NCBI GenBank assembly: GCA_016939335.1
Contig: JAFGHC010000027.1
Span: 1-60,666, forward strand
From: Candidatus Saganbacteria bacterium
GTDB taxonomy: Bacteria; Margulisbacteria; WOR-1; O2-12-FULL-45-9; XYB2-FULL-48-7
DNA: 60,666 bases
Direction: 5' to 3'
The notes under the pieces were generated by a model. That model was not told where the DNA came from, ran no database searches, and was given only the letters and a program-made list of their open reading frames with translations. Below, piece by piece: positions 2,416 to 9,868 of the stretch. The first letter of the stretch is position 1. Each line of letters starts with the position of its first letter. The translations under genes and the position numbers were made by a program.

Positions 2416-3420
2416 ATGAGCGATAAAAGCCCGATCGCCAGGGTCGTCGCCCATTATCGGGACAGATACCGGGTCAGGAGCGGCCAGAACGAGTTCTGGG
2501 CCGAAGTGACCGGTAAAATGATGTTCACCGCGGCCGGGCCGGCCGATTACCCGCTCGTCGGCGATCTGGTAGAGATAACGGAACTGGAAAGCGATCATGC
2601 CATGATCAGACGGGTCGTGCCGAGAAAAACGCTCTTGCAGCGAAAAGCGTCCGGCAAAATCGCGGCTCAGCCGATCGCCGCCAACATCGATACCGCTTTT
2701 GTCGTTCAGGCGGCCGATCGCGATCATAATTTAAACCGCCTGGACCGTTATCTGGCGATCATCCGGGCCGGCAAGATCGAGCCGGTCATCGTCTTGAACA
2801 AGATCGACCTGGCAGCCGAGGGCCGGCTGGCCGGCATACTCGCGCAGATCGCCGGGCGCCATCAAGATACCACCGTGATCGCCACCAGCGCCGCGGCCGG
2901 CGACGGCCTGAAAGAGTTGCGCGCAAGACTGGAGAGCGGGAAAGTCCACTGTTTTGTCGGTTCTTCCGGCGCGGGCAAATCGTCAATTATCAACAAATTG
3001 CTGGGCAAGGAACTGCTGAAAACAAAAGAGATCAGCCTGTTCACCAAGAAAGGGAAACACACGACCACTCACCGCCAGCTGTTCATCCTCGATAGCGGCG
3101 CCCTGGTCATCGATAATCCGGGGATGAGGGAGATCGGGGTGGCGGACAGCGGCCCCGCCCTGGCCGGCGTTTTCGCTGAGATCGCGGACCTGGCCCGGGA
3201 TTGCCGGTACACCGATTGCGCTCACGATCACGAGCCGGGCTGCGCCATCCTGGCCGCGCTAAAGTCGGGCGCCATCGACCGCGATCAATACCTGAATTAC
3301 CTGAAACTGAAAAAGGAAGCCGATCATTACGCCCTGTCCAGCCTGGAGAAAAAGCAAAAAGACCGCGGCTTAAGCCGCCTGATCAAGAATTACTACAAAC
3401 AAACAAAGAGCGGGCGATAA
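2416..3420 (+). CDS. rsgA: Ribosome small subunit-dependent GTPase A
   Basis: OB-fold start, NKID, GSSGAGKS, GKHTTT, DNPG, C-terminal CRYTDCAH..EPGC zinc site. Confidence 0.95.
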   Translation: MSDKSPIARVVAHYRDRYRVRSGQNEFWAEVTGKMMFTAAGPADYPLVGDLVEITELESDHAMIRRVVPRKTLLQRKASGKIAAQPIAANIDTAFVVQAADRDHNLNRLDRYLAIIRAGKIEPVIVLNKIDLAAEGRLAGILAQIAGRHQDTTVIATSAAAGDGLKELRARLESGKVHCFVGSSGAGKSSIINKLLGKELLKTKEISLFTKKGKHTTTHRQLFILDSGALVIDNPGMREIGVADSGPALAGVFAEIADLARDCRYTDCAHDHEPGCAILAALKSGAIDRDQYLNYLKLKKEADHYALSSLEKKQKDRGLSRLIKNYYKQTKSGR

Positions 3421-3452
3421 TCGTTATCGCTGTGATAAAATGATGATCCAAC

Positions 3453-3500
3453 ATGCTTTGCTTAGCCATCGAAACTTCGTGCGTTCCCCAAACACATCAG
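3453..3500 (+). pseudogene. Remnant tsaD 5' end / attL-like site (copy 2), left border of island
   Basis: atgctttgcttagccatcgaaacttcgtgcg = MLCLAIETSC, then stops after 20 codons; ends in aacacatcag, the reverse complement of ctgatgtgtt at 8820-8829. Confidence 0.75.
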
Positions 3501-3579
3501 GGTAAATTTGGCTAAGGCGCTCAAGGCATCCCCCACCATACTACCTGAAAAAGCATTACGATCTAAATAATCCAATTCG

Positions 3580-4125
3580 CTATATTTTGGATAAACATTC
3601 GTCAAATTGTTCCGACAAAATAACCAAAGAATTATCTGGATGAAAAGTATTTTTCCCTACTCTTTTTAGGTAGCGGAGATACACGCGTTGGCGAAGAAAT
3701 GCGTCTAATAATGTCGCCGAGCGAGCAACAAGCACGCCTATTCTCCCAAGAGCAGAAGCATTTATTAAATCTCCAAGCAGATGTTTTCTACTCCCTGTAT
3801 CTTCAATCTCAATACAAAAAAGGCATCGCGCATTTTCATTAAAGTGCAGGATGCCATCAAACGAAACGCGTTCCTGAATATCACCGACAACATTTTTGTT
3901 ATGTTTATTAATCAAGCTTTCTACAAAACCACGCGTTTTCATGAGAGCTTGCGTGTATTCAGCCTCATATGTCCTTTGGATGGCAAAAGGCCCAACAGCC
4001 AAATCAACAACTGGGGAATATATTTGACGCCCCTCTCCCATAAATGGTCTCCACTGGACCTCCACTTCATTATAAAGCTTTTTCAATCTTTTTTTTGCTT
4101 TTTCCTGATATTCTCTCTCATTCAT
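3580..4125 (-). CDS. Putative PD-(D/E)xK-fold nuclease-like protein
   Basis: P.VDLAV ... CIEIEDTGSRKHLLGD.INAS.LGRIGVLV restriction-endonuclease-like spacing. Confidence 0.5.
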   Translation of the reverse strand: MNEREYQEKAKKRLKKLYNEVEVQWRPFMGEGRQIYSPVVDLAVGPFAIQRTYEAEYTQALMKTRGFVESLINKHNKNVVGDIQERVSFDGILHFNENARCLFCIEIEDTGSRKHLLGDLINASALGRIGVLVARSATLLDAFLRQRVYLRYLKRVGKNTFHPDNSLVILSEQFDECLSKI

Positions 4126-4144
4126 ATATTTCTAATCATCGCGG

Positions 4145-7100
4145 TCATCCTAGCTCAACTGTGGGGTATAATTCTTCTAACAAGCGCTGAATTTCTTTGC
4201 ATAGCCCTCTTTGCATTTCTGTTTTTGGGTTTATTGCCTTATAAGCTTTTACGAGCTCATTCATATAATAGCAATTCACTAAAATCCCTTTCTTTGTCGC
4301 GTCAGATATCATTTTAAGCAAAAAAGAAAATACTGACAAAAAATCATCGAGCGATTGCCCTAATATAATTTGGAAAACATCTTCCTCCGCCCCCCATAAT
4401 TGAGCATTTTGCTTATTTTTGATATGGGAATCGATCTCTATCTTAAATGCCTTCATAAACATATTCTTATATTTAGCATATTTACTTGGGCTTGCTATCT
4501 CAACTTCTATCACTCGATAAATATGCTCATACGCTTCTTTATCATATATATTCACCATGTGTTCAAAATATGGCTCTACCCTCAAAAAGTCATCTGTGGA
4601 TTTCTGTTGATCGTTTTGCGCAAGATTCCAGAATTCCCATGCTAATTGTCCTTTAAAAGGGCTTTCACTTGAGCATAATACCCTCAACTTATCTTTAAAG
4701 GGTTTAGAATTAAATTTTTGATCATCTTCTACAAATTCAGCATAATAGATAAAAAGGAATGCTGCCTTAGCCGCGCCCCTTCTCTCAAAAATAGATAGAA
4801 CTGCAGTCGCGTCATCAACACTCAAATCACGAATAAATGAGAACACATGAATTAGATATTCAATTAAATCGTAAGGCTTGGACAATTTCGCTTCGAATTG
4901 GTCATTTATTTGACGCAAAAGATTAAGCGCATAAAGCTTAATCTCATCCCCGAGGCCAGCCCTATACTCATTTAATTTGCCTCGCCTCCAATAATCAGAT
5001 AAATCAAGGAAAGGCACTAAAGCTTCTTTCCTTATGTATAGATCGGGCTCAGAATATTCTAACTTCTTTGCAAGAACGCCATCTAAGTCCATCAAGATTT
5101 TTATCTTTTCATAGGCATACGCCATCATACTAGGGTCATTCGTCAAAACAAAATACTTTAATAACCAAGCAACATGGGCTCTCACGCCGGAAATTGTGGG
5201 GATAGATTCACCGTTCTTAATTTTTATGTGCTGATTATATCTGTCCTGTTTGTCAGTATCCGGGTCGGGATCATCGATACATAAATCTACAATGTTTTTA
5301 CCCTCATTATAATACTTATTCTTAACCAGCTCTTCGCCCATTATTACTATATTCATTCGTATGTGCGTGCTATTTTTAAATTTACTCCAAAATACATCTT
5401 TATTCTTCAGATATGGCGAAATCATTGCATACGTCTTAACTGGATCAATCTTAGATAATTCCCTTATCGGTGCCGCTAAAAAATCCAAAACCTGCTCGCT
5501 TGGCGCCTCCTTACTTAGCAAGCAATGAACAATCTTCTCCCCACGCACAGCTCCTTCTGCCCAATCTTTTTCTATTAGCCCGGTGATAATCCCACTCTTA
5601 TCCCACACAATATCGCTATTAGATTCGTTTAAATATTTCGCAAAATCAATAGTATTGAATATATCCACTATAAAGCCGGGATCTGTTCCGGGGATTTGTT
5701 CTTTAATAAGCAATTCAAAAGAATCAAAATTATGATTATCATACCTAGCAAAATCTTTTCTTTTGATTAGAGACAAAAAGTATTCTTTTGCCGGCTCATA
5801 CCCTATTTTAATTAATTTAACCAGCACATGTATCGCAAAAAGACTCGTAGGATATCCAGGCTCATATTTACTAGCATCGAGCTTTATAAGCTCAATAATT
5901 CTATTTAATCCATATTGATTTAATTCGCCCTGGCTTAATAAATAAAATACCATCTCTGACGTCTGAGGAAGTCCTTTAATTATTTGCACAATATCTTTTA
6001 GGGCTAAAAAGGCATCCTCTCTTTTTGCGGCGCTAAGCGTATTGTCTGAGATTCTTTCCATCACGATTGGGATTAGCGCCCGATAAAGAAAAACGGGGTT
6101 ATTCCTACTTATACGTTTAAGCAAAATATTCCTTTTAAAGAAAAGCCATGAATTAGCTTTGTTCCCCTCATACATCTCCAAAAATAATGGTTTAAACAAC
6201 AACCTCACTACGCCCTTATCAGAAATTGAATAAGTATTTCCCACTTGCAACCTCCCACCACCAGCCCGCTCATACCCCTTAAATCCTCCGCCATATATGG
6301 CATTAAATTGAGCCGAGATTTTACCAACAACATATTTAAAATTTTTAAAATTTATTTTTAAATTAGAACAAATATAATTTCTAACGAACTTATAAATCAG
6401 AGGGGGAGTTTCAACAACGTTTTCAAAATCATCCGAAGTAAAATCATAGTATTTAAACAAAAAAGCAATAAATTCTCCCACATTTGATGCCCGGCCCAAC
6501 AATGCCTGCATAATTTGAGCAATATGCTCATCTTCCTGCCAATTTTTCTTTTGCCTAGCCCTGCTATTCCTATACTTCCAATCAAAAGGCCTTAGTATTT
6601 CTTTCTTTAAAAATCCTATAATCAATGAATCGTATTCGCCTTTAGCATCTTTACTAACCACTTCTTCTAACATGTCCATAGCGTCATCGTACTCGAATTC
6701 GGAAGAAAACCGCCTATAATTATTGATTAGAAATTTCATGACATAAGAGGGAGACGCCAACCCATTTTTCCATTTTTCCCTTATAATGCGTATTGCAAAA
6801 TGAATATAACATTCTTTAATTAACATCTTTTCCAAAAAGAAGCTCATTTCTTCAATAGTGAAATTAGAACTTTTTAGTTTATCGCTTAGATAAAAGATTA
6901 ATTGTGGCTTCGCACTCAATTGGCTCAAATAGACATGATTATCAAGTTCTCGAAAATTATTCGGGCAATCTAAATAGGACTTTAATGCTATAACCTCATT
7001 CCCCATCTTGATTTTCGGGTCAAATGGCGTTGGAATATTTGACAAATATTGCTCAAATTCCAATAGTTTCGATTTAAATTCGTTATTAGATATAGCGCCC

Positions 7101-7690
7101 CCCGATTTCCCTGTGTTCATTATTTCTTTAAAATATTGGGCGATAATATTATCTTTATCTTTGTCATCATAATAAAAATGATATTTAAAGGTAAAATGTT
7201 CACTTATTCGGGCATGAATCGCTTCTATATTGTTAAACTCAATGATTTCGGTTCTTAATAAAAATGAAATTTCCTGCGGAGTCCAATTCTGCTTAACTAG
7301 CGTTTTAATCCTAGGGTTCTGGCTAAGCAATCCTTCTTTAAACAAATAAGCATAATTTTTTAGATATAGATACACATTCCTTGCCCTCTCGCTCAGTCGC
7401 CTAACAACGATGAAAAACCTGTCCTCAACCCCATACTGCTTGCGCAATTTCTTCGCAATAATATTTTTGATATCACTCAGCCTTAATGGTTTTGCAAACG
7501 ATTTAATCTCATAATCCTCAACAATATCTTTGTATATCAATGTGAAATCACTTCGTCCTGCCGGCTCAATAACAATTTTCTCAAAATCAGATTTTTCGCT
7601 GGCCGCCAACAAATAAAGAAGCGCTATGTCTGCCTGGTCAGAAATCCCAGTAACTGTTGATTGCCCTTTATTTTTCATTTTGCTCGCCAT
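4145..7690 (-). CDS. Large protein: N-terminal Cap4/DUF4297-like endonuclease plus about 950 aa predicted helical region
   Basis: G..DQ..IALLYLL ... IVIE....DF ... YEIK N-terminal motif order; no canonical Walker A seen. Confidence 0.55.
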   Translation of the reverse strand: MASKMKNKGQSTVTGISDQADIALLYLLAASEKSDFEKIVIEPAGRSDFTLIYKDIVEDYEIKSFAKPLRLSDIKNIIAKKLRKQYGVEDRFFIVVRRLSERARNVYLYLKNYAYLFKEGLLSQNPRIKTLVKQNWTPQEISFLLRTEIIEFNNIEAIHARISEHFTFKYHFYYDDKDKDNIIAQYFKEIMNTGKSGGAISNNEFKSKLLEFEQYLSNIPTPFDPKIKMGNEVIALKSYLDCPNNFRELDNHVYLSQLSAKPQLIFYLSDKLKSSNFTIEEMSFFLEKMLIKECYIHFAIRIIREKWKNGLASPSYVMKFLINNYRRFSSEFEYDDAMDMLEEVVSKDAKGEYDSLIIGFLKKEILRPFDWKYRNSRARQKKNWQEDEHIAQIMQALLGRASNVGEFIAFLFKYYDFTSDDFENVVETPPLIYKFVRNYICSNLKINFKNFKYVVGKISAQFNAIYGGGFKGYERAGGGRLQVGNTYSISDKGVVRLLFKPLFLEMYEGNKANSWLFFKRNILLKRISRNNPVFLYRALIPIVMERISDNTLSAAKREDAFLALKDIVQIIKGLPQTSEMVFYLLSQGELNQYGLNRIIELIKLDASKYEPGYPTSLFAIHVLVKLIKIGYEPAKEYFLSLIKRKDFARYDNHNFDSFELLIKEQIPGTDPGFIVDIFNTIDFAKYLNESNSDIVWDKSGIITGLIEKDWAEGAVRGEKIVHCLLSKEAPSEQVLDFLAAPIRELSKIDPVKTYAMISPYLKNKDVFWSKFKNSTHIRMNIVIMGEELVKNKYYNEGKNIVDLCIDDPDPDTDKQDRYNQHIKIKNGESIPTISGVRAHVAWLLKYFVLTNDPSMMAYAYEKIKILMDLDGVLAKKLEYSEPDLYIRKEALVPFLDLSDYWRRGKLNEYRAGLGDEIKLYALNLLRQINDQFEAKLSKPYDLIEYLIHVFSFIRDLSVDDATAVLSIFERRGAAKAAFLFIYYAEFVEDDQKFNSKPFKDKLRVLCSSESPFKGQLAWEFWNLAQNDQQKSTDDFLRVEPYFEHMVNIYDKEAYEHIYRVIEVEIASPSKYAKYKNMFMKAFKIEIDSHIKNKQNAQLWGAEEDVFQIILGQSLDDFLSVFSFLLKMISDATKKGILVNCYYMNELVKAYKAINPKTEMQRGLCKEIQRLLEELYPTVELG

Positions 7691-8229
7691 TTGCGCATAA
7701 CATCCGAAGGCTCATATGTTCGGTTTGCATTTTTTATTGTTTCACGATTACTAATAATACCCATCAATTCCTCTGCATCAATTATTTTTATATAGCTAAA
7801 CTCTTTCTTATTGCTATAAATATATTCGGCGGCACTTTTATTCACTTTTCCTGAAGTAACTATATAAAAACCGTCGAGGTGCACTCCCTCGCTACCCTTA
7901 CTTGATGTTCCAAAATTAAAGCTATGAGAAAATGCCATTTTAATTTGATTTTGAATCGTTATAATGTTGCTGTTTTTATCTGGCTTTCCCTTGCAAACAA
8001 GATCGACACATTTTACTTGCACTCCAAATCTTTTTCGATGACGAAATATATCGGGATTTTCAAACCACACATCTATCCCCATCTCGGCGCTTCCGTGCAT
8101 ATCCTTAACATCTTCTGCAAAAATATAATTTAGAAGTGGAATTATAATCTTCTGACGCAATAAGTCCTCATTTTTGATGGACTTCAATATATCTATATTA
8201 ATAGTATCTAGATTAATGTTTTTCTTCAT
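7675..8229 (-). CDS. Mrr-like restriction endonuclease domain protein
   Basis: E..L...II.PLL, HG.AEMGIDV, GVQVK, YIVTSG, IIDAEEL. Confidence 0.7.
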   Translation of the reverse strand: MKKNINLDTINIDILKSIKNEDLLRQKIIIPLLNYIFAEDVKDMHGSAEMGIDVWFENPDIFRHRKRFGVQVKCVDLVCKGKPDKNSNIITIQNQIKMAFSHSFNFGTSSKGSEGVHLDGFYIVTSGKVNKSAAEYIYSNKKEFSYIKIIDAEELMGIISNRETIKNANRTYEPSDVMRKWRAK

Positions 8230-8560
8230 GCATAAATGCCTTGATTTTCTGCTTCTTTATTTACTTATTCAATCTGCATGATGAATTATTATACCTCTTT
8301 TGCCTGTTTTAATCGCGAATACTTAGATAATATGGCATTCTTGCTATGCTGGTCGTCAGTTTTTCCCTCTTCAGCAGTATTGTTAATAATCGACAAAGCT
8401 ATTTGTATCCCGCCCGTCCTTAAGAGAAGGCAACATTTCTTTTTTAATCTTTCGTTCTTTCGTTAATTTCGCTCCCTAAAGAACAACATCAAGGTTTTTA
8501 TTCAAACCTCTTTATGTTAAAATCACATTCAGTTAACGAATTAAAGGAGGGGGTGTTTCC

Positions 8561-8770
8561 ATGAAAGAATTTGTGGCAATTGAAGATTTAAACGAAGTGT
8601 TTGCTGATTTTAAGAGAAAATTAAATGGATATGTTTTAAGGCGTGCTAAAGAAGAAACTTTAAGGCTATCACCCAATAAAGCCAAGAGAATCATGGCTAA
8701 AGTATTAGATATTTATAAACAAAGAAAGCTAACAAATAAAATTCTTGATGACATCTTAAAATCCTCATAA
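8561..8770 (+). CDS. Small basic hypothetical protein at the island's right end
   Basis: Strong AAGGAGG RBS, 69 aa ORF. Confidence 0.55.
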   Translation: MKEFVAIEDLNEVFADFKRKLNGYVLRRAKEETLRLSPNKAKRIMAKVLDIYKQRKLTNKILDDILKSS

Positions 8771-8824
8771 GAAATTATATTTTGTTCTTTATGTTTTCCG
8801 TAAATATCAAGGAGAACTACTGAT

Positions 8825-9868
8825 GTGTTAGTGATGGCCATCGAAACCTCCTGCGACGAGACCGCCGCCGCCGTCGTGCGCGACGGGCGGGAAGTTCTGT
8901 CCAGCGTCATCTCTTCGCAGACCGAGTTCCACAAAAAGTACGGCGGGATCGTGCCGGAGGTGGCCGCCCGCAAGCATATCGAGGTCATCTCGCCGGTCAT
9001 CAAGGAAGCGATGGAGACGGCAAAAGCCGGCTTCCGCGAACTTGACGCGGTCGCCGTCACCTGCGGCCCCGGGCTGGTCGGCTCGCTCATCGTCGGGCTC
9101 TCCGCCGCCAAAGCGATCGCCTGGTCGATCAACAAGCCCCTCATCGGCGTCAACCATCTTGAGGGACATATCTATGCGAACTTTTTAAATCCCAACCTCA
9201 AACTTCAAACATCCAAACAAAAGGCAAAGGACAATCATCAAAAACCAAATTTCCCTTTTGTTTGCTTGCTGGTTTCCGGCGGTCACACAATGATTATCAA
9301 AGTTAACGGGCACGGAGTCTACCAGACCCTCGGCCGCACGCGCGACGACGCAGCGGGGGAAGCGTTCGACAAAGTGGCGCGGTTCCTCGGTCTCGGCTAC
9401 CCGGGCGGGCCGGTCATCGACCGGCTGGCCAAAGAAGGCAACCCAAAGGCCGTGAAGTTCACCCGCCCCCTCCCCGACGGCTACGACTTCAGCTTCAGCG
9501 GGATCAAGACGGGTGTTGTCAACGTCAAGAGCCGTGACCCGGGACTCACGACCCGGGACATTGTTGCTTCCTTCCAGCAAGCCGTCGTCGATGTCCTGGT
9601 CGATAAAGCTGTCCGCGCCGCGCTGGACCACGGCTGTCAAACAATGACGCTCGCCGGCGGCGTTTCGGCAAATTCATTATTGAGAAGCCAGCTTGAAGCG
9701 CGCGGAGAAGACGCAGGCTTAAAGGTTGTCATCCCGCCCTTCGAATACTGCACCGACAACGCCGCCATGATCGCCAGCGCCGGATTTTATAAATACATCA
9801 ATTCGTCATTCGTCATTCGTCATTCGTCATTATCCCTTGAAGCCGTTGCCAGTTTGCGCCTGGAGTAA
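8825..9868 (+). CDS. tsaD: tRNA N6-adenosine threonylcarbamoyltransferase TsaD
   Basis: AIETSCDET, VPEVAARKH, GPGL.GSL, VNHLEGH, LVSGGHT, DDAAGEAFDK, CTDNAAMI. Confidence 0.97.
   Translation: MLVMAIETSCDETAAAVVRDGREVLSSVISSQTEFHKKYGGIVPEVAARKHIEVISPVIKEAMETAKAGFRELDAVAVTCGPGLVGSLIVGLSAAKAIAWSINKPLIGVNHLEGHIYANFLNPNLKLQTSKQKAKDNHQKPNFPFVCLLVSGGHTMIIKVNGHGVYQTLGRTRDDAAGEAFDKVARFLGLGYPGGPVIDRLAKEGNPKAVKFTRPLPDGYDFSFSGIKTGVVNVKSRDPGLTTRDIVASFQQAVVDVLVDKAVRAALDHGCQTMTLAGGVSANSLLRSQLEARGEDAGLKVVIPPFEYCTDNAAMIASAGFYKYINSSFVIRHSSLSLEAVASLRLE

Follow-up and report, generated by a model that had tools for sequence, protein, structure and literature searches.

A two-gene candidate for anti-phage defence without a nucleoside triphosphatase on an AT-rich island of Candidatus Saganbacteria

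The 60,666-nucleotide contig JAFGHC010000027.1 of a Candidatus Saganbacteria bacterium (assembly GCA_016939335.1), analysed over its whole length and called the window below, carries an AT-rich island with three genes on the minus strand, which we call A, B and C. We propose, with a probability of about 0.62, that this island bears a two-gene candidate for anti-phage defence that does without a nucleoside triphosphatase (NTPase), in which the large protein B would be sensor and effector at once and would be accompanied by an interchangeable partner nuclease. The conserved unit is B together with a small gene upstream of it, which encodes either an Mrr-like or a Schlafen/AlbA_2 protein. The three genes, each given as an open reading frame (ORF) with its translation in amino acids (aa), are:

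7675..8229, minus strand, gene A, 184 aa
4145..7690, minus strand, gene B, 1181 aa
3580..4125, minus strand, gene C, 181 aa

Genes A and B overlap by 16 nucleotides (nt; 7675-7690), and a gap of 19 nt lies between B and C.

The two-gene unit emerges from a comparison of 22 related loci, two of them on genome contigs (assemblies of a Planctomycetia and a Thermodesulfovibrionia) and 20 on metagenome contigs. A homologue of A stands directly upstream of B in 14 of the 22 (44-55% identity, tblastn), and in another six the same place is taken by a Schlafen AlbA_2 protein of 273-278 aa (E-values of 6e-17 to 2e-22); these six partners are mutually related, at 33-71% identity. All AlbA_2/B pairs overlap, by 4-8 nt, and among the A/B pairs that were measured the spacing lies between an overlap of 16 nt and a gap of 13 nt. 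Clustering on residues 1-120 of B with a 90% identity threshold groups the window and the 22 loci into 15 lineages, eight with A, six with AlbA_2 and one with neither. In rarity the families of A and B are close, with 21 clusters by profile search for A, the window's own included, and 22 for B.

Partner types do not follow the descent of B. On a maximum-likelihood tree of the 16 complete B proteins (which omits L009, L011, L014, L015, L016, L018 and L022, where B is partial or frameshifted) the two types are interleaved: the window, with its Mrr partner, is sister to L017, which has an AlbA_2 partner, and both sit within a 100/100 clade with L002, which is of the Mrr type. The pairing also extends beyond the close family. 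Two distant relatives of B occur among 146 genomes of the source phylum, in ORFs of 1208-1209 aa (best pieces at E 1e-31 to 1e-36). In G103 the relative is preceded, 3 nt upstream, by an A-like protein of 190 aa (hhalign 97%, E 9e-11), and in G110, with a 4-nt overlap, by an AlbA_2 protein of 269 aa (E 7e-16). Since both partner types are kept in these two genomes, the pairing is older than the close B family. A prediction of the complex between A and residues 372-1181 of B only gave a score of 0.01 against a mark of 0.32, which says nothing either way.

The relatives of B comprise 21 full-length clusters (1132-1191 aa, 39-50% identity), one cluster of 996 aa and the protein's own record; none is named and none has a Pfam domain. 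The modelled protein falls into two parts:

7016..7690, minus strand, B residues 1-225, predicted Cap4-type nuclease domain with invariant D48, E61 and K63
4145..7015, minus strand, B residues 226-1181, predicted all-helical alpha-solenoid, ARM/HEAT-like from about residue 665

In the family alignment, A1, the N-terminus is kept as GQxTFTGISDQADIALLYLL, followed by D48-F-T-L and by E61-x-K63. The residues D48, E61 and K63 are invariant in all 22 close relatives and in G103 and G110, whose nuclease domains are 21% identical to that of the window; G9, Q10, G15 and Q19 are likewise invariant down to this level. Refolded alone, residues 1-225 reached a predicted local distance difference test score (pLDDT) of 82.8 and a predicted template modelling score of 0.80. 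Aligned by VIA to 48,161 chains of the Protein Data Bank (PDB), without a Foldseek prefilter, the domain model gave the following matches:

6vm6_A, AbCap4, Z 16.3, root-mean-square deviation 4.8, 198 residues aligned
8zue_A, HamA, Z 13.5
9ux8_C, LmuA, Z 13.0
8dgc_A, Avs3, Z 11.4, over model residues 4-211
7yib_A, EcCap4, Z 11.2
9hqx_A, Salmonella LmuA, Z 9.2
4f0p_A, MspJI, Z 7.0, the first row outside the defence effector nucleases above it

All six chains at Z >= 8 are thus defence effector nucleases, and AspBHI follows MspJI at Z 6.2. Foldseek places the domain model with 6wam_B (Cap4) at E 1.1e-7. With the whole B model, the best VIA-align match is again Cap4 (6vm6_F, Z 15.4, over model residues 4-216), with HamA, LmuA and Avs3 next over the same N-terminal residues, and Avs3 takes rank 2 in Foldseek; the model opens with an alpha-beta-beta-beta-alpha-beta core. 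In the Atlas the nearest clusters to B are unnamed proteins of 1178-1209 aa, with a Cap4_nuclease lead at 0.81. By predicted fold, residues 1-225 are a Cap4-type nuclease, and the link is structural only. At one metagenome locus (L011, 1263-1937) B is frameshifted after about 45 codons, where decay or an assembly error is possible.

The remainder of B is modelled as one long helical structure. In the full-length model (AlphaFold2 on alignment A1, mean pLDDT 84.3) DSSP assigns, beyond residue 201, helices and two strands of three residues each. Residues from about 665 to 1176 match importin-alpha and designed ARM proteins at Z 11-13.4, a range that is common for helical repeats, which score high against many unrelated solenoids. 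The top Foldseek rows for this part are karyopherins, CAND1 and condensin, and FANCD2/FANCI are also among its matches. Three motifs of the solenoid are invariant, DFTSDD (416-421), GYE (472-474) and DDPDPxT (806-812). The Walker A pattern [GA]xxxxGK[ST] is absent from A, B, C and all 22 rows of the B alignment, and the model of B has no P-loop or parallel-sheet domain after residue 225; as modelled, B is without an NTPase. A glycine-rich loop, GYExxGxG...G.YSI.D, is conserved in the family at B residues 472-491 (about 6218-6277, minus strand); its pLDDT falls below 50 at residues 476-486, and it may be a functional or interface loop.

Full-length Mrr carries an N-terminal DNA-binding (winged-helix) domain. 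Gene A, as read from its sequence, is a small bare Mrr-type catalytic domain of the PD-(D/E)xK kind: 184 aa leave no room for a separate DNA-binding domain, and no second Pfam match was found. The Pfam family Mrr_cat matches seven of 11 members of the A family (best E 9.5e-7), and the window's own A reaches E 0.0082 and 16.7 bits, below the 21-bit cut-off. In the A-family alignment (A2, n = 11), D53, E57, Q71 and K73 are invariant and form the D...QxK motif that A shares with Mrr; Mrr is free-standing, whereas A is tied to B. Two near-identical metagenome loci, L004 (2744-3325) and L005 (693-1274), have A split into ORFs of 107 and 82 aa, again with decay or an assembly error as possible causes.

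The likeness of A to Mrr is also what speaks for a different kind of trigger. The pair could be a defence system that senses nucleic acid, in which the solenoid clamps modified or unusual phage DNA and the Mrr-type subunit cuts the target directly, in the manner of type IV systems. The modification-dependent enzymes MspJI and AspBHI, the next matches of the B nuclease after the defence effectors, are consistent with this, as are the DNA-binding condensin HEAT subunits and FANCD2/FANCI among the solenoid matches, and the pairs adjoin restriction-modification (R-M) and McrBC genes. We nevertheless consider this reading unlikely. No known modified-base reader domain in Pfam matches A or B, and the partner can be exchanged for a Schlafen/AlbA_2 protein, a type that excerpts of PMC13056530 describe as cutting tRNA elsewhere, which fits a shared upstream sensor better.

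The genes around the pair are largely of the defence type, and type I R-M genes are frequent among them. A type I hsdS gene (Methylase_S, over the Pfam cut-off) stands directly upstream on the same strand in nine of the 22 loci (L002, L004-L007, L009, L012, L016 and L018), which cover 5 of the 15 lineages and both partner types; L003 adds a Methylase_S fragment just below the cut-off. The pair either overlaps the end of hsdS or begins 3 to 57 nt beyond it. The other neighbours are:

L001: TdeIII restriction enzyme and two methylases
L019 and L020: NotI enzyme and D12 methylase
L012: McrBC
L008: DUF499 and Hypoth_Ymh
L021: BrxB-like gene
L017: T5orf172/ResIII
L004 and L007: pairs of HEPN and nucleotidyltransferase genes
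G103: type ISP enzyme
L013 and G110: integrases

The spread of B is patchy rather than lineage-wide. It is found in three of the 146 genomes of the source phylum, counting the two distant relatives, in one of the 401 genomes sampled in the phylum to which L002's genome belongs, and in two of the genome_contigs species set.

A place directly after hsdS, with either partner type, is what one would expect of a back-up that guards type I R-M, with a solenoid that watches the R-M complex or binds anti-restriction proteins and fires when restriction is blocked; the gene order of L002, hsdR-hsdM-hsdS-A-B, suits this idea, which resembles the role of PrrC in the EcoprrI locus. The genome that holds the window has no match to Methylase_S or N6_Mtase (hsdS or hsdM) at 94.9% completeness, and other loci adjoin type II or type ISP R-M genes, or none. 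Because type I genes are missing at home and the neighbours vary elsewhere, dependence on type I is not general, and we regard guarding as a quite improbable account of the family.

The pair was compared with known systems that share one of its parts. By function, its nearest analogue is DSR2, in which, according to excerpts of PMC11263360, a SIR2 enzyme is joined to HEAT repeats that bind the phage tail tube protein, without an NTPase. Like B, DSR2 is one chain, some 1000 residues long, whose enzyme lies at the N-terminus and whose C-terminal part is helical/HEAT-repeat (excerpts of PMC11263360 and PMC11850899). However, its effector is a SIR2 NADase, whereas B has no SIR2 match and a nuclease instead, and DSR2 consists of one gene, whereas B is coupled to another, small nuclease gene. 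By effector fold, the nearest analogues are Cap4, LmuA, HamA and Avs3. Avs3 resembles B in its layout, a Cap4-type nuclease at the N-terminus and a large helical sensor behind it, but Avs is defined by a STAND NTPase between the two, and B has neither a Walker A motif nor a P-loop sheet; a reading of B as an Avs protein was rejected on the missing NTPase. The Cap4 of CBASS is the best fold match and shares the D...ExK motif, but it works with a SAVED domain and a CD-NTase cyclase; no such family is found on any island ORF, and the remainder of B is all-helical. LmuA and HamA have the nuclease fold of B and are described in the literature as effectors held by a larger partner until triggered. 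That partner is the SMC-like ATPase LmuB in Lamassu and the helicase HamB in Hachiman, whereas the island has no such ATPase (Pfam, PADLOC) and no helicase family.

The second partner type has its own precedent. Bacterial Schlafen nucleases (pSlfn) are presented in excerpts of PMC13056530 as antiviral tRNases joined to varied sensors, and the AlbA_2 partner in six of the 22 loci and in G110 has the same Schlafen AlbA_2 domain. Their sensors are fused to the nuclease (PMC13056530, in the same excerpts), whereas in the present pairs sensor and partner would be two proteins, the presumed sensor having a nuclease of its own; the words HEAT, solenoid, Cap4, operon and type I restriction do not occur in the excerpted text. 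Because it fails the defining feature of each of CBASS Cap4, Avs, Lamassu, Hachiman and DSR2, the pair is a member of none of them. We see it as a candidate modular sensor-nuclease defence system that would put partly known effector domains around an unnamed solenoid. A full-text literature search of main articles, without their supplements, returned no description of it.

An earlier note on this DNA, made from the letters and the ORFs, anticipated much of this. It gave three co-oriented AT-rich ORFs of 184, 1181 and 181 aa with a 16-nt overlap of A and B, and its coordinates are exact. Its statement that methyltransferase, cyclase and Walker A are missing is borne out by family scans (Pfam, PADLOC and NCBIfam, with no methyltransferase, cyclase or NTPase family on A, B or C) and by the string search of A, B, C and the 22 B rows, and the NTPase-free label by that search together with the B model. 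The label Mrr-like for A agrees with the Mrr_cat matches in seven of 11 family members. Its reading of B as a Cap4-like nuclease with a long helical region is upheld by fold (Z 16.3 to AbCap4), not by Pfam sequence; the structural check that it proposed, carried out on B with AlphaFold2, Foldseek and VIA, found a nuclease fold and no STAND NTPase. The proposed PADLOC check, run as v2.0 on A, B and C, matched no known system over cut-off. Its verdict that the genes match no recognised system survives in part: no Pfam, PADLOC or NCBIfam model covers them, but the build, an effector and an alpha-solenoid without an NTPase, is that of DSR2.

The mechanism that we envisage is as follows. B would be a single-chain sensor-effector whose solenoid of about 950 residues probably binds a trigger of phage origin, with a protein the likeliest candidate. 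Binding would change the assembly state of B, and its N-terminal Cap4-type nuclease would then cut DNA. A or the AlbA_2 protein, presumably co-translated with B, would supply a second, interchangeable nuclease, probably held or activated by B through contact. Activation by assembly state is suggested by Cap4, Avs3, LmuA and HamA, which are silent until assembly or release, and by DSR2, which couples a HEAT sensor to an enzyme without an NTPase. An effector role for the AlbA_2 partner is plausible because Schlafen nucleases are antiviral tRNases, and the shared place upstream of B then looks like an effector slot. The folds, the catalytic motifs, the lack of an NTPase, the conserved pairing and the neighbourhoods are what the analysis shows; defence, the nature of the trigger, the mode of activation and the contact of A with B are inferred by analogy with these systems.

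Several observations weigh against this proposal. Nothing in Pfam, NCBIfam or PADLOC v2.0, which is older than current releases, matches A, B or C over cut-off, so the defence label is drawn from folds and neighbours. For the nuclease of B, the Pfam family Cap4_nuclease gives no sequence match with the E-value threshold relaxed to 1, and searching PDB sequences with a nuclease-domain profile found no Cap4 chain; single sequences of A, B and C and the profiles A1-A4 likewise gave nothing meaningful there. DSR2 appears neither among the sequence matches nor in the structural rows listed for B, which makes the likeness one of architecture and not of demonstrated kinship, and it is from architecture that the solenoid is proposed to be a sensor or scaffold. 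No other defence genes lie beside the island in the window, and its genome lacks hsdS and hsdM matches. Finally, a partner is not obligatory: L013 has only a 76-aa helix-turn-helix gene upstream of B, and L020 has no partner. L019 and L020 have near-identical B proteins and the same NotI R-M genes downstream; L019 has an AlbA_2 partner, and L020 has thioredoxin/DsbD genes upstream instead. The case of L020 shows that B can occur alone.

The earlier note had joined all three genes of the island into one operon system, and here the comparison goes against it: no homologue of C stands beside B in any of the 22 related loci (tblastn) or in either of the two distant ones (ORF lists), and the unit is of two genes. 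Its call for a check of gene neighbourhoods was answered in the same way, with an A-type partner beside B in 14 of 22 loci and defence-type neighbourhoods around them, and with C never present. Of the three tandem PD-(D/E)xK nucleases that it described, the labels of A and B hold, and the fold label of C is a lead only. C has no match in Pfam, PADLOC, NCBIfam or PDB sequences (with single sequence and profile), and the C and A profiles show no relation. The Atlas offers leads only: one at 0.91, to a cluster with the automatic name 'Restriction endonuclease family protein', and one at 0.80, to NmeDI_C. P38, D41, E106, E108, K114 and H115 are invariant in the C family, and D41, E106, E108 and K114 fit the D...E/D-x-K pattern of PD-(D/E)xK enzymes; to judge from these residues, C is possibly a nuclease of this kind.

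In the source organism itself A, B and C might still act as one three-nuclease system, being co-oriented and similarly low in guanine-cytosine content (GC), with 19 nt between B and C and no terminator-like site found in that gap. Against this, besides the missing C at the related and distant loci, the C family is far larger than that of B (156 clusters in varied bacteria, with 42-68% identity among the 120 matches listed) and occurs alone, for example on a Bacillus plasmid without B, so that we give the three-gene system little chance. Among the 146 genomes of the source phylum, C is present in one, the window's own. C is a separate cargo of the island, outside the conserved pair. Its sole plasmid homologue (L033, NZ_CP007513.1 543736-544356, Bacillus, 43% identity, annotated hypothetical) has as neighbours an AAA ATPase with an HNH endonuclease, DUF6602, a type I restriction fragment and a NucS-domain gene, a neighbourhood that is defence-like yet without B.

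The island stands out from its surroundings by composition and is bounded by repeats:

3425..8820, AT-rich island, GC 0.355, flanked by rsgA and tsaD
2416-3420, rsgA, flanking gene
8825-9868, tsaD, flanking gene
3465..3483, plus strand, left copy of a 19-nt direct repeat, which reads AIETSC and resembles the tsaD start
8837..8855, plus strand, right copy of the 19-nt repeat, within the 5' end of tsaD
8561..8770, plus strand, ORF of 69 aa, divergent from A, with a strong AAGGAGG ribosome-binding site

The composition of the island is foreign: its GC of 0.355 (A 0.337, B 0.354, C 0.394) compares with about 0.58 outside, 0.561 in the left flank and 0.595 in the right. Its edges are sharp, and it is the sole such GC trough in the 60.7-kb window. 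The two repeat copies, one at each edge, are identical at 17 of 19 positions. Besides A, B and C the island contains two short ORFs without a family match; for the 69-aa ORF, neither Pfam nor the set of flank proteins compared gave a match. ORF, tRNA and Pfam scans found no tRNA, integrase or transposase at the island, and a transposon or prophage reading was rejected for this reason; terminal inverted repeats are also missing from the island.

With the island bounded by a 19-nt repeat of the tsaD start, the 5' end of tsaD resembles an insertion hot spot. A relative of the same family as the source, G002 (L025), has a second copy of tsaD codons 3-47, 80% identical, about 1 kb upstream of an intact tsaD (partial copy 347-481, intact gene 1501-2550). 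Between the two copies lie two small ORFs of 184 and 138 aa, which by eye look like a nucleotidyltransferase/HEPN-type pair.

Such a location would also suit a function other than immunity, with the pair serving either as a selfish module, for addiction or mobility, or in DNA repair as island cargo, since the island occupies an apparent hot spot with a direct repeat and since repair and mobile elements, too, make use of nucleases on large scaffolds. But the island has none of the mobility genes or inverted repeats named above, and the pair is in single copy in its 1.53-Mb genome. B has no relatives in 2.9 million viral contigs, and C has none there or in phage records; the spread is sporadic, and it is R-M genes rather than repair genes that adjoin the pairs. 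We rate a role outside immunity as very improbable, and defence by the pair of B and its partner as the better account.

The close family is part of a much larger one. Searched against 1.84 billion representatives (clusters at 50% identity), the B profile finds 401 proteins at E <= 1e-3, 334 at 1e-10 and 195 at 1e-30. The N-termini of the best 150 of these 401 were classed by hmmsearch. The full profile is spanned by 91 of them, and 37 are without the N-terminal nuclease part; 24 of the 37 are 907-1020 aa long, and all but one of the 24 have their initial Met between profile positions 226 and 365, on the domain boundary or a little past it. Eight have other, unmatched N-termini of 260-340 residues, and 14 are fragments, one of which (P0261) is a 184-aa nuclease domain alone. 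The solenoid-only forms (among P0243-P0304) and the nuclease-only P0261 hint at split forms.

None of 26 superfamily members scanned matches Pfam or PADLOC over the conserved part. Among 25 diverse members only P0306 is named, for an extra N-terminal HTH_3 domain (capH-like in PADLOC), and below the Pfam cut-offs HEAT appears on P0266 and Cnd1 on P0299. A loose re-scan of seven proteins with other N-termini named no N-terminal domain there, and hhalign of A2 or A4 against the single sequences P0266, P0242 and P0256 gave probabilities <1% and was uninformative. By eye, some of the other N-termini show D...ExK or QxK strings.

A wider reading, which we put forward tentatively and hold to be rather doubtful as it stands, is that B is the founding member of a large, so far unnamed class of pattern-recognition receptors that lack an NTPase and occur in both bacteria and archaea, with at least 401 clusters. 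Their solenoid would sense a phage protein and fire its own Cap4-type DNase together with a swappable partner, Mrr acting on DNA or Schlafen on tRNA by analogy, and they would often be appended to R-M operons as a second line.

If the pair does protect against phages, it would be a new family in bacterial immunity, and the combination of an effector with a helical-repeat sensor without an NTPase, so far mainly that of DSR2, would also be used with Cap4-type nucleases. The swap of Mrr for Schlafen partners on close B proteins would then be a natural experiment in which one sensor drives different effectors. The family is tractable, since the unit is of two genes, its catalytic residues are clear and some 400 diverse representatives offer a choice, and its frequent place after type I hsdS offers a testable link from restriction enzymes to second-line defences.

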